Of a stretch of DNA of 64,000 nucleotides, positions 11,141-48,940 are shown piece by piece. Origin of the DNA: Actinomycetota bacterium (lineage in GTDB: Bacteria > Actinomycetota > UBA4738 > HRBIN12); contig JBBDWR010000011.1 in NCBI GenBank assembly GCA_040902745.1, positions 50,320 to 114,319 on the forward strand, in the 5' to 3' direction. The notes under the pieces are model-generated. The model was not told the origin of the DNA, did no database searches, and was given only the letters and a program-made list of their open reading frames with translations. Within the stretch, counting starts at the first letter, position 1. Each line of letters opens with the position of its first letter. Both the position numbers and the translations under genes were made by a program.

Positions 11141-11176
11141 ACGGCCCAGTCTACCGAGGGTGCTGAGAACGGCCGC

Positions 11177-12847
11177 TCACGAGCGGGCGGAGTCGCGGGG
11201 ATCGTGGGCGCGGAGACGACCCAGCAGCCGGTCGAGGGCAGCGCCGCCGTCGACGGGCTCAGAGGGGGCCTCGCCGGCGCTCTCGACGAGCGCGACGGTC
11301 GAGCGGCGAAGCCAGCTGCGCACGGCAGCGAGCTCGTCCGCCCGGTCTCGCGGGCACGGGAGAGAGAGTGGCTCGTCGTCGCTTCCGGTGTCGGTCCCGG
11401 CGGTGGACGACCCCGCGAGGAGCGCGCCGTGGCGCAGCCGGATGCGTTCGCCGTCGGCATCCCGCAGGACCAGGCTCGCGCTGCCGACGAGCCAGGCGTC
11501 GGTTCGCGCCCGCGCGAGCGACTCGGCGAGGGCTCGCAATCGATCCCGCGCCAGCGCGGCTTCTTCGAACCGCTCTTCGGCTGCGAGGAGGCCGAGCCGA
11601 TCCTCGAGCGCTCTGAGGAGCCCGCCCGGCGAAGGGAGGGAGGAGAGCAGGGTCCGAACGAGCTCCTCGTAGCGTTCGTGGTCGACGCGACCGTCACACG
11701 GCGCGAGACAGCGGCCGATGTCGGCCAAGGCGCACGGCGCGAATCGCGTCGTCGCTCGCATCGCCTTGGTGCATCGGCGGATCGGGAAGGCTTCCTCCAA
11801 TGCTTCCTTCGCGAGCACGGCCTGAGCGCGGTTGGAGAAGGGACCGAGGAAAACTCCCGGCCCCGTCGTTTCGCGCGCGATCTTGAGACGAGGCCACGCT
11901 TCCGAAGGGTCGATCCGAAGGTAGGCATAGCGCCGCCAGGCCTTGCCGCGTCGATTGAAGCGCGGCTCGTGACGACGGATCAGTCGAGCTTCGACCACGA
12001 GCGCCTCTAGTTCGGTCGAGCAGACGATCCCCTCGACCGACGCGACGTGGCTGAGCAACTGCTCGATCTTCTTACGGCTGTCGCCGTAGAAGTACGACCT
12101 CACGCGTCGGCGCAGATCCTTGGACTTGCCGACGTACAGCGCGGCTCCGTCTCGGCCGCGGAACACATACACGCCGGGTCCGTTCGGCAGGTGCTCGGCG
12201 AGCGCGATCTTGCCGAAGTTGGGACGTCCCCTCGCGCGAACCACCTCGTGAAGATCACCGAGCGTCGCGATCCCCAATCGCGCGCCGAGCCCGAGTAGGC
12301 CGTGAAGCACTTCGGCCGTCGCCTGCGCGTCTTCGAGGGCGCGGTGTTTCGGCCGCACGGAGGTGCGGAAATACTGCGCGAGGGTCTGCAGCTTCACGTT
12401 GGGAACGTCGGGCCAAACGATGCGTCGTGCGAGGCGCGCCGTACACACCGTCGGTGCAGGCAGCGGGGGATAGTCCAGCTCGACCAGCGCGGCGTCCAAG
12501 AAGGCCACGTCGAACCGGGCGTTGTGGGCCACGGGAACCGTGTGCTCGAGGAACTCCACCAGGCTCGGGAGCACGGCATCGATCGGGGGACTGCCGGCGA
12601 CGTCGCCATCGGAGATGCCCGTGAGGTAGGTGATCGACCGAGGGATCGGACGCAGGGGGTCGACGAAGGTGTGGAACGTCCCCAGTCGCTCCCCCCCGCA
12701 CATCTTGACCGCCCCGATCTCGGTGATCGCGCTCTGCGAGGGGGATCCCCCGGTGGTTTCGAGGTCGATCACGCAGAACGTCACCTCGTGCAAGGGGATG
12801 CCATCGTCCAGGGTGGTCTGACGAGCTCGGATCTGCGGCAGCGCCAC
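11177..12847 (-). CDS. DEDDh 3'-5' exonuclease (DnaQ-like) fused to a GIY-YIG nuclease domain; Cho/UvrC-like repair nuclease
   Basis: The N-terminus has FCVIDLETTGG and HNARFDVAFL exonuclease motifs. The middle has the GIY-YIG motif GVYVFRG...LYVGKS. This architecture resembles M. tuberculosis Rv2191. GTG start. Confidence 0.8.
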   Translation of the reverse strand: MALPQIRARQTTLDDGIPLHEVTFCVIDLETTGGSPSQSAITEIGAVKMCGGERLGTFHTFVDPLRPIPRSITYLTGISDGDVAGSPPIDAVLPSLVEFLEHTVPVAHNARFDVAFLDAALVELDYPPLPAPTVCTARLARRIVWPDVPNVKLQTLAQYFRTSVRPKHRALEDAQATAEVLHGLLGLGARLGIATLGDLHEVVRARGRPNFGKIALAEHLPNGPGVYVFRGRDGAALYVGKSKDLRRRVRSYFYGDSRKKIEQLLSHVASVEGIVCSTELEALVVEARLIRRHEPRFNRRGKAWRRYAYLRIDPSEAWPRLKIARETTGPGVFLGPFSNRAQAVLAKEALEEAFPIRRCTKAMRATTRFAPCALADIGRCLAPCDGRVDHERYEELVRTLLSSLPSPGGLLRALEDRLGLLAAEERFEEAALARDRLRALAESLARARTDAWLVGSASLVLRDADGERIRLRHGALLAGSSTAGTDTGSDDEPLSLPCPRDRADELAAVRSWLRRSTVALVESAGEAPSEPVDGGAALDRLLGRLRAHDPRDSARS

Positions 12848-12903
12848 GGCGGCTGGATCCTTCCCGGTCGGGTGGGGGCCGCGCGCGGGAGGGCAGCACT
12901 GTA

Positions 12904-20512: not shown

Positions 20513-21118
20513 GTGGACGCGTTGTCATCGGGAGAGCTGAAGCGGCACAAGCGACGGATCCGGGAGGAGATCGTGCGACGGCGGGACGCCGTGCCGGCGC
20601 CCGATCGCGATGCGGCAGCCTTGCGGGTCACCGATCTCGTGGCGAGGATCCTGTCCGATCACAGCGCCCGCATCGTGATGGTGTTCTGGTCGTTCGGCTC
20701 TGAGCTCCCGACGGAAGGGTTGATCGAGCGGCTCGCGGATGAAGGTCGGACGGTCTGCCTGCCGCGCCTCGCGAAGGGGCAGATGCGTGCCCGGACCTAT
20801 CGTCCGGGCGATCCGGTGGTCGAGACGTCGTTCGGGGCCTACGAACCCGCGGATGGCGCGATCGTCGAGGCGGCAGACCTCGATGCCGTGCTCGTGCCGG
20901 CCGTCGCGTTCGATCGCCTGGGTTTCCGGGTCGGCTACGGGGGCGGATTCTACGACCGCTTCCTCCGGGGGGTTCGGCCCGACGCTCTTCGCATCGGAAT
21001 CGGGCTCGCGGCCCAGCGCGTCGAACAGGTCCCCCGAGGGCACTTCGACCTGCCCGTTGACCTCGTCGTTACCGAATACGGGGTCGACGATGTCGGTGGG
21101 CGGCGCTCTTCGACTTGA
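20513..21118 (+). CDS. 5-formyltetrahydrofolate cyclo-ligase (MTHFS)
   Basis: 201 aa with the C-terminal GYGGGFYDR motif typical of MTHFS. Confidence 0.8.
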   Translation: MDALSSGELKRHKRRIREEIVRRRDAVPAPDRDAAALRVTDLVARILSDHSARIVMVFWSFGSELPTEGLIERLADEGRTVCLPRLAKGQMRARTYRPGDPVVETSFGAYEPADGAIVEAADLDAVLVPAVAFDRLGFRVGYGGGFYDRFLRGVRPDALRIGIGLAAQRVEQVPRGHFDLPVDLVVTEYGVDDVGGRRSST

Positions 21119-21194
21119 ACCGCCAGTCAAATCCCTGGTAGAACCCGTGTGCATCACGTCCCCACCCACCGCTGCACGAGGAGGCCGATCCGCG

Positions 21195-22295
21195 ATGGTC
21201 GACGAGCACGAGTCCCCCTTCTACGCGATCCAAGAGTCCTTGGGCGCCACCTTCGTTCCGGAGGGTGGTTGGTTCTGGACGGATACCTTCGGCGACACCG
21301 ACGCCGAGTACAAGGCGCCGCGTGAAGGTGTCGGCATGTGGGATCTGGCTCCCTTGAACAAGTGGGAGTTCACCGGGAAGGATGCGACGGCCGCGATCCA
21401 GCGCATGAACTCCAACGACATCGTGGGGATGCGCCCGGGCAGGGTTCGCTACGGCGCGTTCCTCGATGCCGATGGCCGCATGATCGATGACGGAACCGTG
21501 TACAAGTTCAACGACGAGCGCTATTGGGTGATGACCAACGGGATGGAACGGCGCGAGTACTTCGCCGAGAACACCCAGGGTCTGGACGTGAACATCGAGT
21601 ACCGCTCGTTCGAGCTGCCGAACCTCCAGGTCCAGGGACCGCGTTCCCGGGACCTGTTGGGTTCGCTCACCGACGTCGACCTCGCAGCACTGAAATACTT
21701 CTCGTTCCTCCCCGAGCAGGTGGCGGTCGGCGGCGTTCCGGTGACGCTCTCGCGCACGGGGTTCTCCGGCGAGCTCGGGTTCGAGCTGTTCGTCGCTGCG
21801 GAGAACGCCGATGCCCTGTGGAAGGCTGTGCACGGTGCCGGAGCGCAGCCCTACGGCGTCGGCGTGATCGAGCCGATCCGCATCGAAACAGGCATGATCG
21901 TGACGGACTACGACTACGAACCGAACGCGCGAACGCCTTTCGACTTCAGCATGGACCGGCTCGTCGCGACCGACGTCGCAGGCGCCGAGTTCAACGGCAA
22001 GGCGAAACTCACGGAGATCGCGAAGAACCCGCCGAACCGGTTCAAGACGGTGAAGTGGGACGGCGACGTCACTCCAGAGTACGGCTCGGCGATCACCAAG
22101 GACGGCGAAGAGGTCGGGGTCTGCACGAGCCCCTGTCAGAGCCCGAAGTTCGGCGGCATCGGGCTGGCGATCCTTCGATCGGATGTCGCGATCGACGGCG
22201 AGAAGATCGAGGTCGCACACGAGGACGGAACGCTTCCCGCGACGATCGATGTGCTCGCGATCTACGACCCCGACAAGCGCAAGCCTCGAAGCTGA
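21195..22295 (+). CDS. GcvT-family aminomethyltransferase-like protein (THF-dependent C1 transferase/demethylase-like), paralog 1
   Basis: 366 aa from the internal ATG (MVDEHESPFY...) show glycine-cleavage T-protein family architecture. The upstream 150 codons of the track ORF are an artifact. Confidence 0.8.
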   Translation: MVDEHESPFYAIQESLGATFVPEGGWFWTDTFGDTDAEYKAPREGVGMWDLAPLNKWEFTGKDATAAIQRMNSNDIVGMRPGRVRYGAFLDADGRMIDDGTVYKFNDERYWVMTNGMERREYFAENTQGLDVNIEYRSFELPNLQVQGPRSRDLLGSLTDVDLAALKYFSFLPEQVAVGGVPVTLSRTGFSGELGFELFVAAENADALWKAVHGAGAQPYGVGVIEPIRIETGMIVTDYDYEPNARTPFDFSMDRLVATDVAGAEFNGKAKLTEIAKNPPNRFKTVKWDGDVTPEYGSAITKDGEEVGVCTSPCQSPKFGGIGLAILRSDVAIDGEKIEVAHEDGTLPATIDVLAIYDPDKRKPRS

Positions 22296-22334: not shown

Positions 22335-23438
22335 ATGGCTGATCCGGTGAAGTCCCCGCTCTACGACGTGCAGGCCCAAGCCGGGGCGGAGTTCGAGGAT
22401 TTCGACGGCTTTTTGTGGACGGCACACCTCGGCGACGTGATGGGGGAGTACGAGACTGTTCGCACGGGTGCCGGTCTGTGGGATGTGTATCCGCTGGTGA
22501 AATGGGACTTCTCCGGCACCGACGCGCTTCGGGCGGCACAGCGCGTGTTCACCAATGACGTGGTGCACTTGCAGACGGGCCAAGTCCGCTACGGCGCTTT
22601 CGTCGACGACACGGGCAACATGGTGGACGACGGCACGATCTACAAGCTCACCGACGATCACTGCTGGGTCATGACTAACCTTCCCGGCTACGACGCATAC
22701 TTCGCCGGCGCGATGCAGGGGTTGGACGTGAAGATCGAGGATCGCACCTACGACATGCCGTTGATCTCGCTGCAGGGCCCCGACTCGCGGGCCGTGTTGT
22801 CGAAGGTGACCGACGCAGATCTGTCCGAGCTCCGGTACTTCCGGTTCTGGCCCGAGCGCGTTCAAGTCGCCGGTATCCCCGCGTGGGTGCTTCGCACCGG
22901 ATTCTCAGGCGAGGTCGGCTACGAGTTGATCCCCGATCGCGACCGCGCGGTCGAGCTGTGGAACGCGCTCCAAGCGGCCGGGGCGCGGCCGTTCGGTACC
23001 CACGCGATCGAGATCGCGCGCATCGAGGCGGGCCTGATCGTCGCAGGGGTCGAGTACGAGCCCGGAGTGCGCTCGCCCTATGACCTCTCGCTCGACCGGA
23101 TGGTCGCGATCGACGATCCGGCGTGCGATTTCCTGGGCAAGGACCGACTCACGCAGATCGCCGCCGACCCACCCAACCGTTTCAAGACGCTGCGCATCAA
23201 GGGCACCGCCGTGCCAGGGTACGGAACCGCGGTGATGCTGGGCGGCGAGGAGGAAGTCGGCACACTCACGAGCGCGATCGACAGCCCTCCGTTCGGCGTG
23301 ATCGGACTCGCGGTACTCCGGAGCGATCAGTCCGTCGACGGCACTCAGCTCCAGGTTGCTGTGGAGGGCGGCGCGGCCGAGGCAACGGTGGCGCCCTTGT
23401 CGATCTACGATCCGCAGAAGCGCAAGCCCCGCGGCTGA
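22335..23438 (+). CDS. GcvT-family aminomethyltransferase-like protein, paralog 2
   Basis: 367 aa, about 50% identical to paralog 1 (RYGAFVDDTGNMVDDGTIYK..., both ending IYDPDKRKPR). Confidence 0.85.
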   Translation: MADPVKSPLYDVQAQAGAEFEDFDGFLWTAHLGDVMGEYETVRTGAGLWDVYPLVKWDFSGTDALRAAQRVFTNDVVHLQTGQVRYGAFVDDTGNMVDDGTIYKLTDDHCWVMTNLPGYDAYFAGAMQGLDVKIEDRTYDMPLISLQGPDSRAVLSKVTDADLSELRYFRFWPERVQVAGIPAWVLRTGFSGEVGYELIPDRDRAVELWNALQAAGARPFGTHAIEIARIEAGLIVAGVEYEPGVRSPYDLSLDRMVAIDDPACDFLGKDRLTQIAADPPNRFKTLRIKGTAVPGYGTAVMLGGEEEVGTLTSAIDSPPFGVIGLAVLRSDQSVDGTQLQVAVEGGAAEATVAPLSIYDPQKRKPRG

Positions 23439-23489: not shown

Positions 23490-25160
23490 TCAGAACAAGC
23501 CAACCGTGCGGCCGTCGGTGTCGATGTCGACCTTCTGGAACGCGGGGGTTCTGCCGAGCCCCGGCATCCGCTGCATGTCGCCGCAGAGCACCACCACGAA
23601 TCCCGCACCGGCACTGGGAACCACGGATCGCACCGGGAGCCAAAAGCCCCGTGGGCGGTTGAGCAGGGTCGGGTCATGCGAGAGGGACAGGTGGGTTTTG
23701 GCCATACAGACGGGGAAGGTCCCGAATCCGAGAGCGTCCATCCGCACGATGTCCTTGCGGGCCTGGGGAAGGAGATCCACGCCCTGTGCTCCGTAGAGCT
23801 GGGTTGCGATCGCCTCGATCTGCTCGGTGATCGGCGTTCCGTTCGGCGTGAGGTGCGAGAAGGTGTTCGGCTGTTCGCACGCCTCGACGACCGCGTTCGC
23901 GAGGGTCACCGCACCGTCTCCGCCGTCGGCGAATCCCTCGTTGACGACGACGGTCTGTGCTCCGGCGGCGGTTGCGAGCCGTTCGATCAGTTCGATCTCC
24001 GCGGGCGTGTCGGTCGGGAACCGGTTGATCGACACCACGCACGGGAGTCCATAGCGCTTCACGATCTCGATGTGGGCGGTCAGGTTGTCCATGCCGTCGC
24101 GCAGCGCGTTCAGATCCTCCGTGCCGAGGTCTTCGAAGCGCTTGCCACCGTGAGACTTCGTGGCGCGCACCGTCGTCACCAGCACCGCGGCGCTCGGCGC
24201 GAATCCGCCGACTCGGCACACGATGTCGCAGAACTTCTGGAACCCGAGATCTGATGCGAAGCCCGCCTCCGTGACCACGTAGTCCGCGAGCTTGAGGGCG
24301 ATGCGATCCTCGATGATGGAGTTGTTCGCGTGGGCGATGTTGCCGAACGGGCCGGCGTGTAGCAGCACGGGCTGGTGTTCAAGCGTCTGCACGAGGTTGG
24401 GCTTTATCGCGTCCTTCATGACCACGGTCATCGCCCCGGCGGCCTGAAGATCCTCCGCGGTGACCGGCTTGCCGTCGCGCGTCTCGGCGACCACGATCCT
24501 GCCGAGTCGGTCCCGCAGATCCCGCAGATCGTTCGCGAGGGCGAGGATCGCCATGATCTCCGATGCCGCAGTGATCACGAAGGAGTTTTCGCGGGGAACC
24601 CCGTGCGTCTTGCCCCCGAGACCGACGACCGTGTTACGCAGCTCGCGGTCGTTCATGTCCATCGCGCGCGGCCAAGTGATCGTTGCCGGATCGATGTCGA
24701 GCAGGTTGCCGTGGTACAGCGACGCGTCGAGGGCCGCGGCAAGGAGATTGTGTGCGGCCGTGACCGCGTGGAAGTCCCCGTTGAAGTGGAGATTGATCTC
24801 CTCCATCGGGACCACCTGTGCGAATCCACCGCCGGTGCCACCGCCTTTGATTCCGAAGACGGGGCCCATGCTCGGCTCGCGCAGGCAGAGCATCACGTCC
24901 TTGCCGATCTTCCCGAGGCCCTGAGTGAGCGATACGGACGTGGTCGTCTTGCCTTCTCCGGCCTTCGTAGGGGTGATCGCCGTCGTGATGACGAGTTTGC
25001 CGTCGGGGCGGTCGGCCAGGCGTTCGAGCGCGGAGAGTTGGATCTTGGCCCTGGAGGCGCCGTAGGGCTCGACCTCGTCGGGGAGCAGTCCCGCTTCCCG
25101 GGCAACGTCGGTGATGGGGCGAAGCTCCGCCTCCTGCGCGATCTCCAGTCCGCTCTTCAT
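23490..25160 (-). CDS. fhs: Formate-tetrahydrofolate ligase (10-formyl-THF synthetase)
   Basis: 556 aa from MKSGLEIAQ with the FTHFS signatures PTKAGEGKTTT and the GGGFAQVVPM region. The upstream 62 codons of the track ORF are an artifact. Confidence 0.9.
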   Translation of the reverse strand: MKSGLEIAQEAELRPITDVAREAGLLPDEVEPYGASRAKIQLSALERLADRPDGKLVITTAITPTKAGEGKTTTSVSLTQGLGKIGKDVMLCLREPSMGPVFGIKGGGTGGGFAQVVPMEEINLHFNGDFHAVTAAHNLLAAALDASLYHGNLLDIDPATITWPRAMDMNDRELRNTVVGLGGKTHGVPRENSFVITAASEIMAILALANDLRDLRDRLGRIVVAETRDGKPVTAEDLQAAGAMTVVMKDAIKPNLVQTLEHQPVLLHAGPFGNIAHANNSIIEDRIALKLADYVVTEAGFASDLGFQKFCDIVCRVGGFAPSAAVLVTTVRATKSHGGKRFEDLGTEDLNALRDGMDNLTAHIEIVKRYGLPCVVSINRFPTDTPAEIELIERLATAAGAQTVVVNEGFADGGDGAVTLANAVVEACEQPNTFSHLTPNGTPITEQIEAIATQLYGAQGVDLLPQARKDIVRMDALGFGTFPVCMAKTHLSLSHDPTLLNRPRGFWLPVRSVVPSAGAGFVVVLCGDMQRMPGLGRTPAFQKVDIDTDGRTVGLF

Positions 25161-25323
25161 GCTTGGCGGTCCCCTTCGTCTGAATGGCCGTTCAACTGGT
25201 TCGGACGATACAACCCTGGCGGAATGGCTCCAAACGTGACACCCGTGAGAACGACCGTGGGTCAGGCCGCCGCGCAGGCAGGGGCGGGCGCGGCCTGCGG
25301 CCGGGGTAGACCCCGAGCGGCGT

Positions 25324-26205
25324 ATGGACCCTCGCGGTTGCCGCACCTACCCTGGAGAGATGGCCGCCACCGAACCGCTGCGCAGGAACGTTGCACGCAC
25401 CAAGATCGTCGCCGTCAACGCAGGCGTGCGGTCGGAGCGGCCCGACACGCTCGCGGCCGAAGAGCCGATGGAGATCCGCGCGGGCGGTCCCGGCCAGGAC
25501 ACCGGTTCGGTTGCCGTCACGATGCGCACGCCCGGTGGCGATTTCGAACTCGCCGTCGGGTTCCTGTTCACCGAGGGCCTGATCCGCGGGCGCGACGAGA
25601 TCGATCGGGTCGCATATTGCGACGACGTCGGACCGGACGAACAGCGCTACAACATCGTGACCGTTCGGCTCGCCCATGCCTTCGACACCGAGTCGGTCCG
25701 CAGGAACTTCTACGCCTCGTCGAGTTGCGGTGTCTGTGGCAAGGCATCGATCGACGACATCCAGGTGCGCTGCGCTCCGGTCGCACCGGGACCGCAGGTC
25801 GAGGGCTCGATCATCGCCGGACTCCCCGATGCGCTCCGCCGGGCACAGCCGGTGTTCGACAAGACCGGTGGCTTGCATGCTGCGGGGTTGTTCGGCGTCG
25901 ACGGCGGCCTGATCAGTCTGCGCGAGGATGTCGGGCGGCACAACGCGGTCGACAAGGTCATCGGTGAGCAGCTGCTGGCCGGCACGGTACCGCTGGCCGA
26001 GCGCATCCTTCAGGTTTCGGGTCGAGTCAGCTTCGAGATCGTGCAGAAGGCCGCGGTTGCCGGGATCCCGGTGATCTCGGCGGTGAGTGCGCCGTCGAGC
26101 CTGGCGGTCGAGGCCGCCGAGGGCTTCGGCATGACCGTCGTTGGCTTCGTGCGCGACGATCGGTTCAATGTCTACTCTCACCCCGAACGCATCGGGACCA
26201 CCTGA
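25324..26205 (+). CDS. fdhD: Formate dehydrogenase accessory sulfurtransferase FdhD
   Basis: FdhD family (SSCGVCGK active-site Cys motif, GRHNAVDK). The alternative start ATG at 25360 has an adjacent GGAGAG. Confidence 0.8.
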   Translation: MDPRGCRTYPGEMAATEPLRRNVARTKIVAVNAGVRSERPDTLAAEEPMEIRAGGPGQDTGSVAVTMRTPGGDFELAVGFLFTEGLIRGRDEIDRVAYCDDVGPDEQRYNIVTVRLAHAFDTESVRRNFYASSSCGVCGKASIDDIQVRCAPVAPGPQVEGSIIAGLPDALRRAQPVFDKTGGLHAAGLFGVDGGLISLREDVGRHNAVDKVIGEQLLAGTVPLAERILQVSGRVSFEIVQKAAVAGIPVISAVSAPSSLAVEAAEGFGMTVVGFVRDDRFNVYSHPERIGTT

Positions 26206-26350
26206 GGTCTCTGGGCGGTCATACGGTCGACCCCCGCCCGGCGGGGTGCGACCAAGGGTCATGGCCGAGGTCCGGATCCCATTTGAACGGGGGTTTAGAA
26301 TCGTGGAGCAACCGGCCGATGCCGGTTGGACATCTCGGAAAGGAGCGCCG

Positions 26351-28282
26351 ATGCCGAACGGGCTCGCGCGACTCACGGAGCCGATGGTTCGCGAGAACGG
26401 CGAGCTGCGCGTCGTCCCCTGGGAGGTGGCCCTGGACCGGGCCGCCGAGGGGCTGCGCGCGGCGACCGATGCGAACGGCGGGGACGGAGTCGGCCTGTTC
26501 AGCTGCTCGAAGGCCACCAACGAGATGAACTTCGTTGCTCAGAAGTTCATCCGCCAGGCCCTTCGCAGCAACAACATCGATAGCTGTAACCGCACCTGAC
26601 ACGCACCTTCGGTCGTCGGTCTGGCGACCGTGTTCGGGGCAGGTGGTGGCACAAGTTCATACGAGGAGGTCGAACACACGGACCTCGTGATCCTCTGGGG
26701 ATCGAATGCGCGAGAGACGCACCCGATCTTCTTCCATCACGTCCTCGCCGGGATCCACAACGGTGCGCGGCTGTTCGCCGTGGATCCTCGGCGCACCTCC
26801 TCGGCCGAATGGGCCGATCTCTGGCTGGGGATCGACGTCGGTACCGACGTCGCGTTGTCGAACACGATGGCGAGGGAGATCATCGCGAGCGACTTGCACG
26901 ACAAGACGTTCATCTCGCGGGCGACCAGCGGGTTCGCCGCGTACGAGAAGAGCGTCGAGGACTGGACGCTCGACCGAGGGGCGGCCGTTACCGGCGTCCC
27001 GGCGGAGGTGATCCGGGAGGCCGCCCACGCGTACGCACGCGCGGACCGCGCGATGATCTGCTGGACGCTCGGGATCACCGAGCACCACAACGCGGTCGAC
27101 AACGTGCTCGCGTTGATCAACCTCGGCCTGCTGACCGGTCACGTCGGCACCTACGGCAGCGGACTCAATCCGCTTCGCGGACAGAACAACGTTCAGGGCG
27201 GTGGAGACATGGGCGCGATCCCGAACAAGCTCCCCGGGTTCCAGGACCTCGAGCGAGATCCGGCCGCGCGCGAGCGGTTCGAGCGCGCGTGGGGGGTTCC
27301 GATCGCTCCGAAGTATGGCTGGCACCTGACGCAGATGTTCGAGGCGATGGAGCGTGGCGAACTGACGGCTGTTTACGTGATCGGGGAGAATCCCGCGAGT
27401 TCAGAGGCCGACATGCATCGGGCCCGCAAGCTGCTGTCCAACCTCGACACCCTGATCGTGCAAGACATCTTCATGACGAAGACGGCGGAGATGGCTGATG
27501 TGGTGCTGCCCGCCTCAGCCTCGTGGGCCGAGACCGAGGGGACGGTGACCAACTCAGAGCGCCGGGTGCAGCGTGTTCGCAAGGCGCTCGACCCTCCCGG
27601 GAACGCACGCGACGACGTCTGGATCATCAACCAGCTCGCGAACCGGCTCGGACTGAGCTGGGGTGAGGTGACGCCGCATGCCGCGTGGGACGAACTCCGC
27701 ACCCTGAGCCCGATGCACGGCGGGATGAGCTGGAAGCGGCTCGAGGAGGAGGGCGGGCTCCAGTGGCCCTGCCCGGACGAAGAGCATCCCGGGACCCTCT
27801 TCCTGCACGAACGGCTCTGGGAGGAGGATCCCGCTGCGCGAGGCGAGCCCGCACCGTTCAGCATCACGATCGACTCCGCGCCCGTCGACGAGCTGACAGA
27901 TGAGTATCCGCTGCGGCTGACGACGGGACGGCGCCTGACCGACTACAACACGGGCGTGCAGACGGGTGGATTCTCCTCACCCCTGCGTCGGCAGGAGTCC
28001 GTCGACATCTCGCCCGAGGATGCGCGAGACCTCGGTGTGGCCGAGGGGGAGATCGTTCGCGTGACCTCTCGGCGGGGGACGGTCGACGCGCCGATCCGGA
28101 TCGACACGGTCCTGCGGCCGGGGCTGATCTTCATGACGTTCCACTTCCCCGAAGAGGTGGAGACGAACAAGCTCACCATCGACGCCACCGATCCCAAGTC
28201 CGGAACCGCCGAGTTCAAGGCGGCGGCGGTGCGGATCGACAAGTTGCCGGACGTGGTTGCCGCCGGCGGGGGCGGATCGTAG
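26351..28282 (+). CDS. fdhA: Formate dehydrogenase Mo-bisPGD catalytic subunit; probable selenocysteine at an in-frame TGA (26597-26599); lacks the N-terminal Fe4S4 domain
   Basis: The ATG is preceded by the RBS GGAAAGGAG. The translation across the TGA reads CNRT-U-HAPSVVGL, which aligns with E. coli FdhF CARV-U-HGPSVAGL. The downstream frame continues as molybdopterin oxidoreductase domains to 28282. The ORF track splits this gene into 26141..26599 and 26630..28282. Confidence 0.8.
26597..26599 (+). other. In-frame UGA, predicted selenocysteine codon
   Basis: Its position corresponds to the Sec/Cys active-site residue of FDH-alpha. Confidence 0.65.
26610..26630 (+). other. SECIS-like hairpin (CGGUCG-UCGGUCUGG-CGACCG)
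   Basis: A 6-bp stem with a 9-nt loop containing GGUC starts 11 nt after the UGA. This is the usual place for a bacterial SECIS. Confidence 0.45.
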
Positions 28283-28301
28283 TGCCCGAGCGGCAGGGGG
28301 C

Positions 28302-30236
28302 GTGTTGGACCTCCAGCTGACCGACGCGCGCGCCACCGTGGAGGAGCGCGCGGCAGTCGACGCGCTGCTCGGACCGCCCGAAACGCCGTGGGACGGCGGC
28401 GAGCGCGATGCGTACGGCGTCCGTGTTTCTCGAACCGGCCGCGAAGCGAGGGAACAACGCCACCTCCTGCTCCCCGCTCTGCACGCCGTGCAGGATCGGA
28501 TCGGGTGGATCAGCGAAGGCGCGTTGAACTACGTCTCGATCCGGCTGACCGTTCCTCCCGCCGAGACGTTCGGAGTCGCCAGCTTCTACGCGCTGTTCGC
28601 TCTGCAGGAGCGCCCGCCGACCGTGGTCCACATCTGCGACGACATCGCCTGTGGATCTTCGGGAGCGGAGCGTCTCTGCGGAGAGATGGAGCGGCTGATC
28701 GGTCCCGCAGGCACACCCACCACCGACGGGGGCACGACCTGGCAGCGCAGCCCGTGTCTCGGCCTATGCGAGCAGGCCCCCGCCGCGCTGGTGCAGCGAG
28801 CGGGGATCGGCGTGACCGACCGGTCGATCGGCTGCGCGCGCGCCGAGGACGTCGTTGCGGCGATCACGTCCCGAGCCGACGAGATCGGCCTCGGTGCCGA
28901 CGTCGCGACGATCGCGCCGCAGACCGCAGACGAGAGCAGGTCCGAACTTCGGCTGCTGCGCCGGGTGGGTGTCGTCGACCCCGGATCCCTCGACAGCTAC
29001 CGAGCCGAAGGAGGGTACGAAGCCCTTCGGATGGCGGTCGAGATGGGCCCGGGCGGCGTCATCCGAGAGCTCAAGGACGCGAGGCTGATGGGCCGCGGCG
29101 GGGCTGCGTTCCCGACGGGGGTCAAGTGGGAGGCCGTGGCGTCGCAGGCGAGTCGCCCGCACTACTTCATCTGCAACGCGGACGAGTCCGAGCCCGGAAC
29201 CTTCAAGGACCGTGTCCTGATGGAGCACGATCCGTTCGCATTGATCGAGTCGCTCACGATCGCCGGATACACCACGGCGTCGGAGCACGGGTCGATCTAC
29301 ATCCGAGGGGAGTATCCGCTCGCCCAGGCGCGACTGCGCCATGCGATCGATGAAGCACGTGAACGCGGGTATCTCGGTGACGACGTGATGGGGGAAGGGT
29401 TCACCTTCGACATCGAGGTGCGCCGCGGAGCCGGCGCCTACATCTGCGGCGAGGAAACGGCATTGCTGAACTCGATCGAAGGCAAGCGCGGCGAACCTCG
29501 AAGCAAGCCACCGTTCCCGGTTTCCCGCGGCCTGTTCGGCAAGCCCACAGGGATCAACAACGTCGAGACGCTCGTCAACGTACTGGAGATCCTCCGGATC
29601 GGAGGCCCGGCATACGCGCAGATCGGCACAGAAGGATCCACCGGCCCGCGGCTGTTCTGCCTGTCGGGCACGGTGGAACGACCCGGACTGTACGAGGTCC
29701 CGTTCGGTGCCACGCTCCGCGACCTGATCGAGCTCGCCGGCGGGGTGTCCGGCGGGCGGCCACTGAAGGCGGTTCTGCTGGGCGGTGCTGCCGGAGCGTT
29801 CGTCCGTCCGCAGGACCTGGATCTGAAGCTGACGTTCGAAGACACTCGGGCGGCGGGGGTCACCCTGGGGTCGGGCGTCGTGATGGCGTTCGACGACACG
29901 GTGTCGCTCCCGGAGGTGCTGCTGCGGATCGCGGCGTTCTTCCGCGACGAATCCTGCGGGCAATGTGTACCGTGCCGTGTGGGAACGGTGCGCCAGGAGG
30001 AGGCGCTCCAACGGATCGTCCGCGGCGCCCAGATCGGCTCGCGGGACGAGGAGCTCGCGCTTCTGGGCGAGATCGCGCAGGTGATGCGCGACGCCTCGAT
30101 CTGCGGGCTCGGTCAGACAGCAGCAAACGCGGTGGTCTCGGCGATCGAGCAGCTCGGTGTGTTCGAAGGCGCGGACACGTCGAACGGGAGTCAGGATCGC
30201 TCCGTCCCCACTCGTACCGAAGAACAGGAGTCCTAG
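28302..30236 (+). CDS. NAD(H)-binding formate dehydrogenase diaphorase subunit, NuoE-like/NuoF-like fusion (FdsG-FdsB)
   Basis: The N-terminus is a thioredoxin-like 2Fe-2S domain (CDDIACGSSG...C). It is followed by NuoF motifs (GRGGAAFPTG FMN site, GAGAYICGEETAL NADH site, ESCGQCVPCR 4Fe-4S). The GTG at 28302 follows AGGGGG. The alternative TTG at 28257 overlaps the previous gene. Confidence 0.85.
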   Translation: MLDLQLTDARATVEERAAVDALLGPPETPWDGGERDAYGVRVSRTGREAREQRHLLLPALHAVQDRIGWISEGALNYVSIRLTVPPAETFGVASFYALFALQERPPTVVHICDDIACGSSGAERLCGEMERLIGPAGTPTTDGGTTWQRSPCLGLCEQAPAALVQRAGIGVTDRSIGCARAEDVVAAITSRADEIGLGADVATIAPQTADESRSELRLLRRVGVVDPGSLDSYRAEGGYEALRMAVEMGPGGVIRELKDARLMGRGGAAFPTGVKWEAVASQASRPHYFICNADESEPGTFKDRVLMEHDPFALIESLTIAGYTTASEHGSIYIRGEYPLAQARLRHAIDEARERGYLGDDVMGEGFTFDIEVRRGAGAYICGEETALLNSIEGKRGEPRSKPPFPVSRGLFGKPTGINNVETLVNVLEILRIGGPAYAQIGTEGSTGPRLFCLSGTVERPGLYEVPFGATLRDLIELAGGVSGGRPLKAVLLGGAAGAFVRPQDLDLKLTFEDTRAAGVTLGSGVVMAFDDTVSLPEVLLRIAAFFRDESCGQCVPCRVGTVRQEEALQRIVRGAQIGSRDEELALLGEIAQVMRDASICGLGQTAANAVVSAIEQLGVFEGADTSNGSQDRSVPTRTEEQES

Positions 30237-30239
30237 ACG

Positions 30240-31286
30240 ATGTCCAGGGTGATGCTGGCTCCGCCCAAGCGACTGATCGACATCGAGGTCGACGGTGCGA
30301 CGGTCCGCGTGCCCGAGGGCTCCACGCTGCTGGATGCGCTGCGCACCGAGGGGGTGGACACGCCCACGCTGTGTTACCTCGAGAACCTGACACCGGTGAA
30401 TGCGTGTCGCGTATGTGTTGTCGAGGTGGAGGGTGCTCGCACCCTGGTCCCTTCGTGCGCCCGCCAGGCTGAGGCGGGGATGAAGGTTCGAACCGATTCC
30501 GAGCGCGTGCGGACGAGCCGCAGGATGGTCTTCGAGTTTCTGGCCTCCAGCGTGGACCTCTCCCTCGCGGGGGAACAGGTCCAGGGGTGGATGTCCGCCT
30601 ACGGCGTGGAGCCGGACCGCTACGGCCCGAGCGCCGAGCCGGCTCCGCTGGGCGAACGCGAGGCCCGCATCCCCGGGCACCACCACGGGTCCGAGGGGGA
30701 AGCGGCCGAGACCGTCGCACAGCCGATCAAGGTGGACAACGATCTGTACGTCCGGGAGTACTCGCGGTGCATCCTCTGCTACAAGTGCGTCGAGGCGTGC
30801 GGTGTCGACGCACAGAACACGTTCGCGATCGCGGTCGCCGGCCGGGGCTTCGATGCGCGGATCTCCACCGAGTTCGACGTCACGCTGCCCGACTCCGCGT
30901 GTGTGTACTGCGGCAATTGCATCGGCGTCTGCCCCACTGGAGCCCTGATGTTCAAGTCCGAGTACGACATGCGCGAAGCCGGCACCTGGGACGAGCAGGA
31001 ACAGACCGTGACCGAGACGATCTGCCCGTATTGCGGCGTCGGCTGTGATCTGTCGCTGCACGTCCAGGACAACGAGATCGTCAAGGTCACGAGCCCGCTC
31101 GACAACTCGGTCACACACGGGCATCTGTGCATCAAGGGCAGGTTCGGGTTCCAGTTCGTGCAGAACAGAGGCCCCAAGGACGCCGACGCCGGCGCCCGCG
31201 GAGTCGGACTCGTGGAGGGCCCCGCCGATCGGATCGCGCGTCAAGCCGGTACCGGAGACGACGCCCCGGAGACGACGCGAAGGTGA
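30240..31286 (+). CDS. Fe-S subunit corresponding to the N-terminal (NuoG-like) part of FDH-alpha: 2Fe-2S, two 4Fe-4S ferredoxin clusters and a molybdopterin-oxidoreductase Fe4S4 domain
   Basis: Cys motifs CYLENLTPVNACRVC, CILCYKCVEACG, CVYCGNCIGVCP and CPYCGVGCDLSLH. Confidence 0.85.
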   Translation: MSRVMLAPPKRLIDIEVDGATVRVPEGSTLLDALRTEGVDTPTLCYLENLTPVNACRVCVVEVEGARTLVPSCARQAEAGMKVRTDSERVRTSRRMVFEFLASSVDLSLAGEQVQGWMSAYGVEPDRYGPSAEPAPLGEREARIPGHHHGSEGEAAETVAQPIKVDNDLYVREYSRCILCYKCVEACGVDAQNTFAIAVAGRGFDARISTEFDVTLPDSACVYCGNCIGVCPTGALMFKSEYDMREAGTWDEQEQTVTETICPYCGVGCDLSLHVQDNEIVKVTSPLDNSVTHGHLCIKGRFGFQFVQNRGPKDADAGARGVGLVEGPADRIARQAGTGDDAPETTRR

Positions 31287-31324
31287 TCCGATGGAGGTTC
31301 TCGCCGCGCTGATCGCAACGATCG

Positions 31325-31921
31325 ATGCCTCCAGTCCTTGACACCACCGGGGTGGTTCTGGCCGGCGGACGATCCACCCGCTTCGGCTCCGACAAGCTCG
31401 TGGCGACCTACCGAGGGATGCCGTTGCTTCACCACGCCGTCCTTCGCCTGATCGAGGTGTGCTCCGAGGTCGTGGTAGTGCTCGCTCCGGAAGGTGCGGA
31501 CCCGACGCTCCCGCCCGGGATCCCCGCGCGGTTCGCGCGCGACGCGACCGAGGGCCAGGGACCGTTGGCCGGGGTGCTTGCCGGACTGCAAGCGACGACG
31601 ACGGATGTGGCACTGGTCGTCGGCGGGGACATGCCCGAGATCTCGACTCCGGTTGTGTTGGAGATGCTCGAGGTCGCGGCGCAGTCGTCCGTTGATGCGG
31701 TCGTCCTCGGCGACGGGGACACGTTCCGCCCGCTTCCGGTGCTGGTACGCGCTGATCGAGGGCGTGAGGTCGCCCACGCGCTACTCCACGACGAGGAACG
31801 CCGGTTGCGAGCCTTCGTCCAAGCACTGCGCGTCGCCGTGATCGACGCGGAGACGTGGCGGCTTCTGGACCCTGCGGGGGCGACCCTGCGCGACATCGAC
31901 ACCCCCGGTGACCTCGGGTGA
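31325..31921 (+). CDS. mobA: Molybdenum cofactor guanylyltransferase MobA
   Basis: LAGGRSTRFG N-terminal NTP-transferase motif and about 198 aa. It is located directly after the FDH genes. Confidence 0.75.
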   Translation: MPPVLDTTGVVLAGGRSTRFGSDKLVATYRGMPLLHHAVLRLIEVCSEVVVVLAPEGADPTLPPGIPARFARDATEGQGPLAGVLAGLQATTTDVALVVGGDMPEISTPVVLEMLEVAAQSSVDAVVLGDGDTFRPLPVLVRADRGREVAHALLHDEERRLRAFVQALRVAVIDAETWRLLDPAGATLRDIDTPGDLG

Positions 31922-31964
31922 GCGTCGGCTATCCTCGGACCCTTCCCCGATCCCTGGAGGCCTG

Positions 31965-32915
31965 ATGGAGCGCGTTGTGGTGGCCCTCGGCGGCAACGCC
32001 TTGCTCCGACGGGGCGCGGATGACACCTTCGAGGAGCTGTACCGGTCCGCGCGTGGCGCTGCGGAGAAGGTCGCCGACATCGCGGCCTCCGGTTGGGAGG
32101 TCGTGCTCACCCACGGTAACGGACCACAGGTGGGTCGGATACTCATGCAGCAAGAGGCAGCGCGCGGCTGGGTGCACCCGATGCCGCTGGACGTCTGCGG
32201 CGCCGAGAGCCAGGGGCAGATCGGCTACCTGCTCCAGGTCACGATCGGCGACGTGTTCTTCGAACGCGGTATGCAGCGTCCGGTTGTCACGATCCTCACG
32301 CTCACCCGCGTTCCTCCCGACGATCCCGCCTTCGAAGATCCGACCAAGCCGGTCGGCCCGTTCTTCGAGGAGGAGGAGGCGCAACGCCTCGCGGACGAGC
32401 AGGGGTGGACCGTTAAGCCTGACAGCCACGGCGGATGGAGGCGCGTCGTTCCCTCGCCCGTGCCGTATTCGATCGTGGAGACCCCGGTGATCGCGAACCT
32501 CGTCGGGGACGGTGCGATCGTCATCGCGGCGGGAGGAGGAGGGGTTCCGGTGATCGAGCAGGGGCCCAGGCTGATCGGCGTCGAGGGCGTTGTGGACAAG
32601 GACCTCGCGGGCGCGATCCTCGCATCCGAGGTGGACGCGTCGACGTTGTTGATCCTCACGGACGTGAAGTCCGTACAGACCGGGTTCGGGACCGACCACG
32701 CCGAAGAGGTCCACGGGCTCTCCTTGGACGAGGCGCGCCACCTGCTGGGCGAAGGGGAGTTCGGGGCGGGATCGATGGGACCCAAGGTCCGCGCCGCGGT
32801 GAACTTCGTGGAGGGCGGGAGTCGGCGCACCGCGGTCATCGCCGACCTGGAGGACGCGTTGGCGGCGCTCACCGGTGGTGCCGGAACCACGATCGGCCGG
32901 TCGGTCCCGACGTAG
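31965..32915 (+). CDS. arcC: Carbamate kinase
   Basis: Strong ArcC pattern (VVALGGNAL...THGNGPQVG...AAGGGGVPV). Internal ATG of the track ORF. Confidence 0.85.
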   Translation: MERVVVALGGNALLRRGADDTFEELYRSARGAAEKVADIAASGWEVVLTHGNGPQVGRILMQQEAARGWVHPMPLDVCGAESQGQIGYLLQVTIGDVFFERGMQRPVVTILTLTRVPPDDPAFEDPTKPVGPFFEEEEAQRLADEQGWTVKPDSHGGWRRVVPSPVPYSIVETPVIANLVGDGAIVIAAGGGGVPVIEQGPRLIGVEGVVDKDLAGAILASEVDASTLLILTDVKSVQTGFGTDHAEEVHGLSLDEARHLLGEGEFGAGSMGPKVRAAVNFVEGGSRRTAVIADLEDALAALTGGAGTTIGRSVPT

Positions 32916-34839: not shown

Positions 34840-35909
34840 GTGCGCTCCTACCGCGTGGATCTGCGCTCGGATACGGTCACCCGCCCCTCCGACGAGATGC
34901 GTCGGGCGATGGCGGGCGCCGAGGTGGGCGACGCGTGGTACGGCGACGACCCCAGCGTGAACCGACTGCAGGACCGCGCGGCCGAGGTCGTCGGCACCGA
35001 GGCCGCGCTCTACGTGCCGACCGGAACGATGGCCAACCAGATCGCGTTGCGTCTGCACGCTCGGGGCTCGGGTCATCTCGTGGCGTGCGAACGACGCGCG
35101 CATGTCGCATCGACGGAGGTCGCCAGCTCCGCGGTGCTGTCCGGGATCGCGTACCGACGTCTGGACGGCGTCGATCGAGGACACCTGACCGCCGAGTCGG
35201 TCACCGAGGGACTGGAGCCCGACACCTATTTCGACGTCGAGGTCGTGGATCTGGTCGCGATCGAGAACACCGCCGGATACGCGGGCGGGACGTGCATGCG
35301 GTTGCGGGAACTGGAGGCGATCCGGCGCGTCGCACGGTCCCGCGGTATCCCGGTTCACCTCGACGGCGCTCGGCTGTTCAATGCGACGGCGGCGACCGAT
35401 ACCGACCCCGCTGACTACGGGCGCCAGGTGGACACCCTCATGTTCTGCACGTCCAAGGGACTCGGCGGTCCGATCGGCTCCCTGCTGTGCGGCCCGGTGG
35501 AGCTGATGCCCGAGGCCCGGCGGGTGCAGATCCTGTTCGGTGGAGCCTGGCGTCAGGCCGGAGCATGGCGGCGGCGGGACTCGTTGCCCTCGAGAACGGC
35601 CCGAAGCGCCTCCACGAGGACCATGAGCGGGCAAAGCGACTCGCCGCAGGTGTTTCCGACGTGCTCGAGGGATCGCTCGACGCGGCCGCGGTCGAGACGA
35701 ACATGGTGTTCGTCGACGTCCGGGCCACGAAACTCGACACGGGAACCGTGATCGAGCGGCTCCGCGACGCAGGTGTGGGGGCCACCCCGACCGATCGCGG
35801 GGACGTTCGCATGGTCACCCACGCGGACGTCGACGACGACGGCATCGACGTGGCCCTGGAGGCCTGGAGGGAGATCGCCCCATCTGGGTCGGGAAGGAGC
35901 GAGGCGTAG
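34840..35909 (+). pseudogene. ltaE: Low-specificity threonine aldolase, interrupted by a 1-nt frameshift near 35563-35564
   Basis: Track ORF 34840..35751 carries homology up to ...ILFGGAWRQAG. Homology continues in the +1 frame from ATG 35565 (MAAAGLVALENG...) to 35909. Only 2 nt separate the two frames. Confidence 0.6.
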
Positions 35910-36533
35910 ATGGCGCTGTTCTCGAAGAAACTTCCGGACGATGTCGCTCGTCGCGTGCCTCCGGGGCAACGCCTCGTCAAGACGTGGCCCGTGCTTCACG
36001 TTGGCTCGATCCCTGCATTCGATTTCTCCACGTGGGATCTGCGGCTCTACGGTGAGGTCGAGGACGAGGTGCGCCTGACCTACGAGGAGCTCAAGGCCCT
36101 GCCGAACACGACCGTGCCCGCGGATATGCATTGCGTGACCGGGTGGACCACGCTGGACAACGCATGGACGGGCGTTGCGTTCTCGACACTTCGTGATCTC
36201 TGCCGGCCCACGGGCGAGGCGGGTTGGGTGATCACCCACTGCGAACAGGGCTACACGTCCGACCTGTCGCTCCAGGTGATGAACGGCGACGACGTCCTGG
36301 TGGCCTGGGCGCATGGGGGGGCGGACCTCGCGCCGGAACATGGATATCCGCTGCGACTCGTGGTTCCCAAGCGTTACGCATGGAAGAGCGCGAAATGGCT
36401 ACGGGGATTGGAGTTCAGCACTCGCAACAAGCGCGGCTACTGGGAGGAGCGGGGGTATCACGTGCACGCGGACCCCTGGCCCGAGGAGCGCTACTCCTAC
36501 TCCGAGCACGCGCGAGCCGACCTCGAGTCCTGA
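35910..36533 (+). CDS. Sulfite-oxidase-family molybdopterin-binding oxidoreductase domain protein (YedY/MsrP-like, no signal peptide)
   Basis: Oxidoreductase molybdopterin-binding domain pattern (HCVTGWT...WTGV...PKRYAWKSAKWL). Confidence 0.65.
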   Translation: MALFSKKLPDDVARRVPPGQRLVKTWPVLHVGSIPAFDFSTWDLRLYGEVEDEVRLTYEELKALPNTTVPADMHCVTGWTTLDNAWTGVAFSTLRDLCRPTGEAGWVITHCEQGYTSDLSLQVMNGDDVLVAWAHGGADLAPEHGYPLRLVVPKRYAWKSAKWLRGLEFSTRNKRGYWEERGYHVHADPWPEERYSYSEHARADLES

Positions 36534-48866: not shown

Positions 48867-48940
48867 GGCTTCAGGGTGACCGAACCGAACCCAGCGTGGC
48901 AACTGCAGCGAGGCAGCTCCGGAGGTCCTAGGCTCTCGCC

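Follow-up and report, generated by a model that had tools for sequence, protein, structure and literature searches.

A likely selenocysteine-containing formate dehydrogenase operon in which the two parts of the alpha subunit flank the gene of a NuoE-NuoF fusion

The window analysed here is a stretch of 64,000 nt from an Actinomycetota bacterium (UBA4738; HRBIN12; assembly GCA_040902745.1, contig JBBDWR010000011.1). Positions 25324-31921 of this window hold five co-directional genes with short gaps between them, which an original prediction had read as a formate dehydrogenase (FDH) operon with a divided and reordered alpha subunit. The gene order and the coordinates given there could be confirmed for all five genes, namely fdhD, the gene of the catalytic subunit (CAT), that of a NuoE-NuoF fusion (EF), that of an Fe-S protein (FES) and mobA, all on the forward strand. 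The first gene, fdhD (25324..26205), matches FdhD-NarQ in Pfam with 233.7 bits and FdhD in NCBIfam (NF001943) with 315 bits (cut-off 269), and its product is predicted to be the sulfurtransferase/chaperone that matures the bis-pyranopterin guanine dinucleotide (bis-PGD) cofactor of FDHs. CAT (26351..28282; 643 aa) contains the domains Molybdopterin (PF00384, 236.7 bits) and Molydop_binding (PF01568, 98.4 bits) and spans FdhF from residue ~61 to the end, and a Molybdop_Fe4S4 domain (PF04879) was absent from it in the Pfam scan. A Shine-Dalgarno sequence AAGGAG lies 6 nt 5' of its ATG at 26351. For EF (28302..30236), Pfam matches to 2Fe-2S_thioredx, Complex1_51K, SLBB and NADH_4Fe-4S were found on one chain, together with NCBIfam matches to NuoF and NuoE/FdsG, as expected for a putative diaphorase subunit with a NuoE-like [2Fe-2S] domain joined to a NuoF-like module for flavin mononucleotide (FMN), NAD(H) and a [4Fe-4S] cluster. 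The chain stops after NADH_4Fe-4S, and no Fer4-type or C-terminal ferredoxin domain is added according to Pfam. FES (30240..31286; 348 aa), again with a Shine-Dalgarno sequence (AGGAG) 5' of its ATG at 30240, is built from a plant-type [2Fe-2S] domain, a Cys-free insert, two ferredoxin-type [4Fe-4S] motifs (CxxCxxCxxxC) and finally the domain of the proximal [4Fe-4S] cluster (FS0), with Pfam matches to Fer2_4, Fer4_7/Fer4_Nqo3 and Molybdop_Fe4S4. The FS0 domain lies at 31005..31166 (FES residues 256-309; PF04879, 71.4 bits) and holds the conserved Lys of the sequence LCIKG. The last gene, mobA (31325..31921), matches NTP_transf_3 in Pfam (111.8 bits) and, as best NCBIfam family, TIGR02665 MobA under its cut-off; it probably encodes the guanylyltransferase that converts the molybdenum cofactor to the guanine dinucleotide form on which CAT depends. 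With fdhD and mobA the core is thus flanked by maturation genes, which supports its assignment to an FDH. In most related loci fdhD is also found near the core, although its placement varies between loci, and mobA follows FES in most loci from Actinomycetota.

The original prediction placed the division of the alpha subunit exactly between the Fe4S4 and the Mo domain, and this is where the cut is found, with no part missing and none duplicated. The family model TIGR01591 (Fdh-alpha, 672 positions) is shared out between the two genes, FES residues 260-309 covering positions 1-50 (52.6 bits) and CAT covering positions 52-672 (637.6 bits). When FES residues 250-308 were joined to CAT in silico and the construct was searched against the PDB, a single uninterrupted alignment from residue ~5 to the C-terminus was obtained with full-length chains of the FdhF type, namely 7qv7_S, 7bkb_D, the F420-dependent FDH 9t1s_L and 1aa6_A, with a gain of 37-49 bits compared to CAT alone and an adjustment of at most 3-4 residues at the junction. 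Once joined to CAT, the FS0 segment of FES is colinear with FdhH residues 5-55. The proximal [4Fe-4S] cluster, usually bound by the first ~55 residues of the catalytic polypeptide, would in this operon be supplied in trans by the C-terminus of FES.

The conservation of ligands was read from an alignment of 54 sequences (53-54 for CAT). In CAT, U83, H84 and R276 (the Arg of RGQNNVQG) are invariant and fall on the corresponding residues of FdhH in the alignment. FES has 16 Cys in four motifs, all of them 100% conserved, and K299, the Lys of LCIKG that aligns with the Lys of LCLKG in FdhH, is present in 54/54 sequences. The same complete conservation applies to the cluster Cys of EF (C112, C117, C152, C156, C552, C555, C558 and C601), which also has the motif GAGAYICGEE. 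As to the Fe-S content of FES, the [2Fe-2S] cluster, the two [4Fe-4S] clusters and the Fe4S4 domain named in the original prediction were all recovered, with the correction that a His-ligated NuoG-type 4Fe-4S domain is absent: no match to PF10588 was obtained, and no conserved Cys occurs in residues 74-176 across the 54 sequences. The segment of FdsA that binds this His/Cys-ligated [4Fe-4S] cluster corresponds to the Cys-free insert of FES. As a separate observation, the insert (30534-30767, residues ~99-176) contains the strongly conserved motif G146-H147-H148, with H148 in 53/53 and H147 in 44/54 sequences.

An in-frame TGA at 26597..26599 (motif CNRT-U-HAPS) forms the active-site codon of CAT, and a TGA was found at the homologous codon in 62/62 catalytic genes of related loci. 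It is followed after 11 nt by a hairpin (26610..26630) with a predicted 8-bp stem and an invariant GGUCU loop, identified as the selenocysteine (Sec) insertion sequence (SECIS); an apical loop of this GGUC type is also present in the SECIS of E. coli fdhF. The six core pairs are nearly always formed in the 61 sequences aligned, and three pairs show compensatory changes (for pair 18:30, CG in 43 sequences, GC in 14 and no unpaired case). The covariation score of 0.266 compares with 0.150 for shuffled alignments, was attained in 0/500 shuffles and exceeds all register-shifted controls. Rfam SECIS_3 gave a weak sub-threshold match at 26594-26655, and at gathering thresholds no Rfam match was obtained in the window. 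Because the TGA is found in every catalytic gene compared and is accompanied by a covarying hairpin, CAT is taken to use Sec, as had been claimed. No tRNA genes were detected in the 64-kb window. The only Sec-machinery gene seen beside the operon is a tRNA-SeC gene in an Anaerolineaceae metagenome-assembled genome (MAG; locus L026) at 442-538, about 1.8 kb upstream of CAT.

In a scan over one genome per species, relatives of FES (E <= 1e-3) were encoded in at least 544 stretches, of which the best 80 loci were inspected. According to the record titles, about 40 of them belong to Actinomycetota, 15 each to Chloroflexota and Acidobacteriota, 4 to Planctomycetota, and 1 each to Armatimonadota and Vulcanimicrobiota, while 3 are from unclassified bacteria and 1 is labelled as a Micrarchaeaceae archaeon. 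The contig with the archaeal label (L074) carries a bacterial-type operon at 62-70% identity and is probably mis-binned. The order in which the two halves of alpha enclose the diaphorase gene, also part of the original prediction, was recovered in this survey as CAT-EF-FES on one strand in 59/60 loci with at least 4.3 kb of sequence upstream of FES, and covers at least five phyla (Actinomycetota, Chloroflexota, Acidobacteriota, Planctomycetota and Vulcanimicrobiota). The matches along CAT-EF-FES are separated by median gaps of 41 and 30 nt. Upstream of CAT, an in-frame CxxCxxxC motif was found for 0/59 CAT homologues, and the FS0 domain occurs once per locus in 79/80 loci. This arrangement far exceeds chance. 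FES proteins of different phyla are 67-79% identical. Among metagenome proteins, the top 120 homologues of FES have 310-392 aa (all but one 310-345) and 73-93% identity, and a Molybdopterin domain was found in 0 of them; FES sequences from metagenomes form hundreds of 90% clusters, some holding 200-300 sequences.

These data also bear on the question whether a normal alpha gene has decayed into CAT and FES, or appears split only through an assembly or frameshift error. Errors of a related kind do occur, as gene callers break Sec-containing FdhA genes at the UGA and thereby generate false stand-alone Fe-S proteins (two such cases, P0205 and P0245, are described below), and a few metagenome calls join EF and FES, showing errors in this gene set. 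No frameshift, however, could bring the two halves into reversed order and separate them by the 1.9-kb EF gene, and each half has its own ribosome-binding site and start codon. Furthermore, the layout recurs in independent assemblies of at least five phyla with the cross-phylum identity of FES given above, and catalytic residues and cluster ligands are all invariant. A full-length alpha gene, next to which CAT and FES would be remnants, was not encountered either, as no second MopB gene or copy was present among the large open reading frames (ORFs) scanned in the 64-kb window. From the conserved layout, the conserved ligands and the single FS0 domain per locus, a pseudogene or frameshift origin can be regarded as virtually excluded. 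The joined calls (P0125, P0150, P0162, P0215 and P0236), with the C-terminal part of EF and FES in one chain and patchy domain matches, could be real fusions in some lineages or frameshift errors.

We consider it likely that this apparently intact operon encodes a cytoplasmic, Sec-containing formate dehydrogenase made of three polypeptides, with a molybdenum- or tungsten-bisPGD cofactor and belonging to the NAD-linked type (complex-I N-module). CAT would bind the metal-pterin cofactor and oxidise formate at the Sec-His-Arg active site, with FS0 provided to it in trans by the C-terminal domain of FES. Electrons would pass from bis-PGD to FS0, then to the two ferredoxin-type [4Fe-4S] clusters and to the [2Fe-2S] cluster, all of them in FES, and from there to the NuoF-type [4Fe-4S] cluster, FMN and finally NAD(P)+ in EF. 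The NuoE-type [2Fe-2S] cluster of EF would be off this path. Bifurcating and non-bifurcating beta subunits are reported to differ, among other things, in the number of Fe-S centres (PMC7311640), and the lack of extra ferredoxin domains in EF speaks for a simple NAD(P)-linked enzyme without bifurcation. The His/Cys-ligated cluster that is missing in FES is located, in the FDH of Rhodobacter capsulatus (RcFDH), at the dimer interface, outside the pathway from the bis-molybdopterin guanine dinucleotide to FMN (PMC7171172), and Methylobacterium FDH1 (MeFDH1), whose beta subunit is equivalent to FdsG plus FdsB, is an active heterodimer without it (PMC10869683). The distinct subfamily of soluble, Sec-dependent NAD(P)-FDHs that had been proposed thus holds in its sequence-level parts, from which we infer that CAT, EF and FES assemble into an active enzyme, that formate is the substrate, that NAD(P)+, of whichever specificity, is the acceptor and that formate oxidation is the physiological direction.

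Several observations weigh against this assignment. An AlphaFold2 model of FES alone, computed from a 44-sequence alignment of close homologues, had a mean predicted local distance difference test score (pLDDT) of 52.6 and was too poor for a fold search. CAT alone stays under the cut-off of TIGR01591 (637.6 vs 666.25 bits). The best 80 loci are all from MAGs, with no cultured carrier among them; a look-up of the exact FES sequence gave no entry, and no organism names were obtained from the clusters of ten NCBI-sourced homologues. In a Chthonomonadaceae MAG (L039, 7989-8999), FES at 72% identity was found with no CAT or EF within 8 kb, and nine Chloroflexota loci (L017, L020, L024, L026, L036, L037, L055, L056 and L068) have 0.6-4.9 kb of unrelated sequence between CAT and EF. 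Finally, the neighbouring genes of a formate-tetrahydrofolate ligase (FTHFS) and of GcvT-family proteins, described below, fit a reductive, formate-assimilating role equally. With regard to these loci, we also noted that the neighbours of FES in L039 encode a glycosyltransferase, a 3-keto-disaccharide hydrolase and a homologue of the selenium-binding protein SBP56, and that the insert of L036 contains a glyoxalase-fold protein and further uncharacterised ORFs on both strands.

The solitary FES of L039 and the Chloroflexota inserts would be compatible with EF and FES forming a stand-alone HoxFU-like NAD(P)H diaphorase/ferredoxin-type module, with CAT having another Fe-S partner or none. Fe-S proteins of the HoxU/HndD type indeed occur as separate subunits, and JGI labels homologues of FES as HndD. 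We regard this as very unlikely, as FES ends in PF04879, a domain that is otherwise part of MopB catalytic subunits, and keeps in all 54 sequences the pterin-contacting Lys of FdhH-type enzymes. In addition, CAT has no cluster of its own, while FS0 is required in every related FDH, and the three genes travel together across phyla. A substrate of CAT other than formate, as for some FdhF/YjgC/Nas-like MopB enzymes, might be suspected from lower-scoring matches of CAT to assimilatory nitrate reductase and YjgC-type proteins, and from its score 29 bits short of the Fdh-alpha cut-off. The shortfall, however, reflects the missing 50 N-terminal positions, the CAT and FES pieces summing up to ~690 bits, and the next best family scores 225 bits lower. 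As Sec-His and the Arg of RGQNNVQG, the active-site signature of FDHs, are invariant and the gene of the FDH-specific maturase, fdhD, is adjacent, another substrate appears extremely unlikely, and formate remains the substrate to be expected for the three-subunit enzyme.

The closest characterised enzyme is MeFDH1, which uses tungsten and has Cys where the enzyme of the operon has Sec. The alpha-beta enzyme of Methylorubrum extorquens (PDB 7E5Z, 7VW6, 8J83) has the same cofactor inventory as the operon (PMC10869683), with bis-PGD, the proximal [4Fe-4S], two ferredoxin-type [4Fe-4S] and one [2Fe-2S] cluster but no His-ligated dimer-interface cluster on the alpha side, and with FMN, a [4Fe-4S] and an off-path [2Fe-2S] cluster in the single beta chain, as in EF. 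Its alpha subunit is one polypeptide of 989 aa, whereas here two genes flank the gene of the beta subunit. In the PDB search, FES aligned with alpha residues 69-341, CAT with alpha residues 372-978 and EF with the beta chain 7e5z_B in two stretches. The operon would in effect encode a MeFDH1-like enzyme with an alpha subunit cut at the FS0/Mo boundary, in the order catalytic half, beta, Fe-S half.

Taken by itself, CAT is nearer to the FdhF type than to MeFDH1 alpha (503 bits for 7qv7_S vs 435 bits). Its best PDB matches were FdhF of the hydrogen-dependent CO2 reductase (HDCR; 7qv7_S, E 1.4e-149) and FdhH (1aa6, E 9.5e-136), and the FdhF type was followed in the ranking by MeFDH1 alpha and Rhodobacter-type FdsA (residues 308-931). 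FdhF-type enzymes (E. coli FdhH 1AA6, T. kivui HDCR FdhF 7QV7, methanogen FdhA 7BKB and 9T1S) have the Sec-His/Arg site in common with CAT. In these enzymes, however, FS0 makes up the first ~55 residues of the chain itself, while here it is located at the C-terminus of FES, and their redox partners (hydrogenase, F420, Hdr) are unlike those of the operon. For FES the best PDB matches were to the N-terminus of FdsA, residues 25-306 (9wxb_B and 6tg9_A; E 1e-44 and 3e-42), and its architecture was not seen in any of the 60 PDB matches listed. FdsGBA(CD) from R. capsulatus and Cupriavidus necator (6TG9, 6TGA, 9WXB) shares with the operon the logic of the complex-I N-module, an FdhD/FdsC maturase and the cytoplasmic location, and its NuoF-like FMN/NADH site with [4Fe-4S] and its NuoE-like [2Fe-2S] are both present here as domains of the EF chain. 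The active site of FdsA is a Cys. The E and F parts, fused here, occur there as two proteins, FdsG and FdsB, and alpha, encoded here by two genes, is the undivided chain FdsA. The additional [4Fe-4S] cluster of FdsA at the dimer interface is bound by His117, Cys121, Cys124 and Cys130 in RcFDH (PMC7171172), ligands that are absent in FES.

A precedent for a MopB unit made of two polypeptides is FwdB/FwdD of formylmethanofuran dehydrogenase (5T5I), with the split between domains III and IV; FwdB retains FS0, and its genes show no permutation about a diaphorase gene. The C-terminal cap domain comes from FwdD, the cut in Fwd being at the other end of the fold, and FwdB (432 aa chain) matches only the front part of CAT. 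HylABC-FdhF2 and other bifurcating complexes have a separate NuoG/HydA-like Fe-S subunit and NuoF/NuoE-like subunits next to an FDH catalytic subunit (PMC5736913), but FdhF2 retains its own FS0, and the NuoF-like subunit of HylABC has extra [4Fe-4S] domains where EF has none. PDB matches of EF were to HydB/HoxF/NuoF and to FDH beta subunits. Fusions of the NuoE and NuoF types are known from non-bifurcating hydrogenases, including HydB of S. aciditrophicus (PMC7311640), and with MeFDH1 beta there is a second precedent; the fusion noted in the original prediction is hence present but not a novel feature. Neither the E-F fusion nor the missing His-ligated cluster is therefore new, and what appears to be new is the proximal cluster in trans together with the permuted gene order. 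No description of such a split and permuted FDH was found in the full-text literature searched, which covered few subscription journals. A study on the evolution of the MopB superfamily mentions members without FS0 altogether and nothing further on such a split, and one paper reports a planctomycete fdhA in an operon with nuoEF and does not mention a split.

Upstream of the operon and divergent from it lies the gene of FTHFS (23490..25346, reverse strand), with 817.6 bits to FTHFS in Pfam and 783 bits to NF010030 (cut-off 652). Two GcvT-family paralogues on the forward strand (20739-22295 and 22335-23438; GCV_T and GCV_T_C) score 159 and 167 bits, under the gcvT equivalog cut-off of 235.85, and are putative tetrahydrofolate (THF)-dependent aminomethyltransferases or demethylases, resembling the demethylases. 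The first of them has an N-terminal extension of 160 aa. Of the related loci, 15 from Actinomycetota likewise have FTHFS upstream of the operon in divergent orientation, and one from Acidobacteriota (L043) has it downstream of FES. At 25160-25360 the longest FTHFS ORF (618 aa) overlaps the start of fdhD. The Pfam match of FTHFS begins only at residue 65 and the FdhD matches at ORF residues 13-21, and the true starts of both genes are probably further in (for fdhD by a few codons), leaving a divergent intergenic region.

The most economical reading of this neighbourhood is a module for the oxidation of one-carbon (C1) units, in which methyl or aminomethyl groups would be converted via methylene-THF and formyl-THF to formate by FTHFS, and formate to CO2 and NAD(P)H by the enzyme of the operon. 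The potential of NAD+/NADH is -320 mV. Formate oxidation would be favoured because the CO2/formate potential, at about -420 mV (PMC7171172), is well below this value. The same enzyme could alternatively run as an NAD(P)H-dependent CO2 reductase that feeds FTHFS in a reductive-glycine- or serine-type route. The divergent FTHFS gene, the two adjacent GcvT-family genes and the recurrence of the FTHFS linkage in many related loci would suit such a pathway, and according to the literature on RcFDH and MeFDH1, metal-dependent NAD-linked FDHs are reversible in vitro. Against it are the unfavourable potentials and the lack of extra ferredoxin domains in EF, by which CO2 reduction could be driven through bifurcation. 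The GcvT paralogues, being under the gcvT cut-off and demethylase-like, fit better to C1 oxidation, and no GcvH, GcvP or glycine reductase gene was found among the ORFs scanned in the window. We thus consider the reductive direction unlikely and prefer formate oxidation within a C1-oxidation module.

A large gap in identity separates the split family, with at least 57% within it, from the nearest fused relatives at 36-40%. Two stand-alone proteins with ~40% identity, P0205 and P0245, were considered as a second split family and rejected, as they proved to derive from ordinary fused Sec-FdhA genes that gene calling had broken at the UGA. This is seen in L082, where a 365-aa call is followed 37 nt on by a 575-aa remainder and the partner is a GltD-like protein. 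The true split therefore appears to be specific to the CAT-EF-FES family. A search with representatives of 50% clusters gave mostly metagenome fragments and placed the nearest fused relatives at 38-40% identity. Those of FES (P0230-P0233 and P0222; 38-40% identity) are NuoG/FdhA-like and, from reading their sequences, have no evident Sec/Cys-His motif and an insertion in the region of the His-ligated cluster; an apparent C-terminal NuoE-like domain was read, from the sequence only, in P0230, P0231 and P0232, the last of which is cut off at its end. They appear to represent a different, uncharacterised family. In L071, the split operon is accompanied some 2 kb downstream by a second Sec-containing MopB gene (10869-12851), which is fused in the ordinary way and includes an FS0 domain. 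After the TGA of this gene, at 11304, comes a hairpin that has the same GGUCU loop and shows compensatory changes in the stem.

When the CAT, EF and FES sequences of 54 loci were concatenated for a neighbour-joining tree, the clades came out partly phylum-coherent, with Actinomycetota, Acidobacteriota and Chloroflexota each appearing in two or three places. This scatter and the FES identity of 67-79% across phyla suggest some inter-phylum transfer, provided that the taxonomy of the MAGs is right. The permuted order might have originated, as a speculation, if an EF-alpha operon had been duplicated in tandem and had then lost its first EF-FeS part and its last catalytic part. No intermediates of such a duplication were found among the loci, and by eye neither the C-terminal tail of FES nor the 145 nt upstream of CAT showed an obvious resemblance to the missing halves.

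FS0 and the Lys that bridges it to the pterin have been treated as integral to MopB catalytic subunits. If the proposed assignment is true, a widespread and strongly conserved family in which a different polypeptide provides the cluster would show by natural example that FS0 is a separable module, which bears on the engineering of modular CO2-reducing FDHs. Current annotation does not reveal the split: FES is labelled "HndD", "YjgC" or "2Fe-2S cluster-binding protein" in the sources, and CAT is truncated by gene calling at the UGA, the ORF list giving only the 550-aa part after the TGA. As false fragments cut at the UGA resemble true split proteins, a real split is easily overlooked, and metabolic reconstructions from soil MAGs may miss or mislabel the split FDH. 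All examined copies use Sec, which would imply a need for selenium in formate turnover in several of the soil phyla represented here. Put together as one tentative proposal, for which we claim somewhat less than even confidence, this would be the first described MopB family with the proximal [4Fe-4S] cluster in trans, perhaps derived by permutation of an EF-alpha operon and perhaps a major, mis-annotated Sec-dependent formate oxidiser of uncultured soil Actinomycetota, Acidobacteriota and Chloroflexota.

Further genes of the window are a cysteine-desulfurase-like protein (47613-49022; TIGR01976, 450 bits) and a short sulfite-oxidase-type protein of 207 aa with a molybdenum cofactor domain (35910-36533), both with no established link to the operon, and a threonine-aldolase-like gene downstream of it (34840-35751). 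Immediately after the operon, a carbamate kinase gene (arcC, 31908-32915; 377 bits, cut-off 358) overlaps the end of mobA by 14 nt, and many of the related loci from Actinomycetota likewise have a carbamate kinase homologue downstream of the operon.

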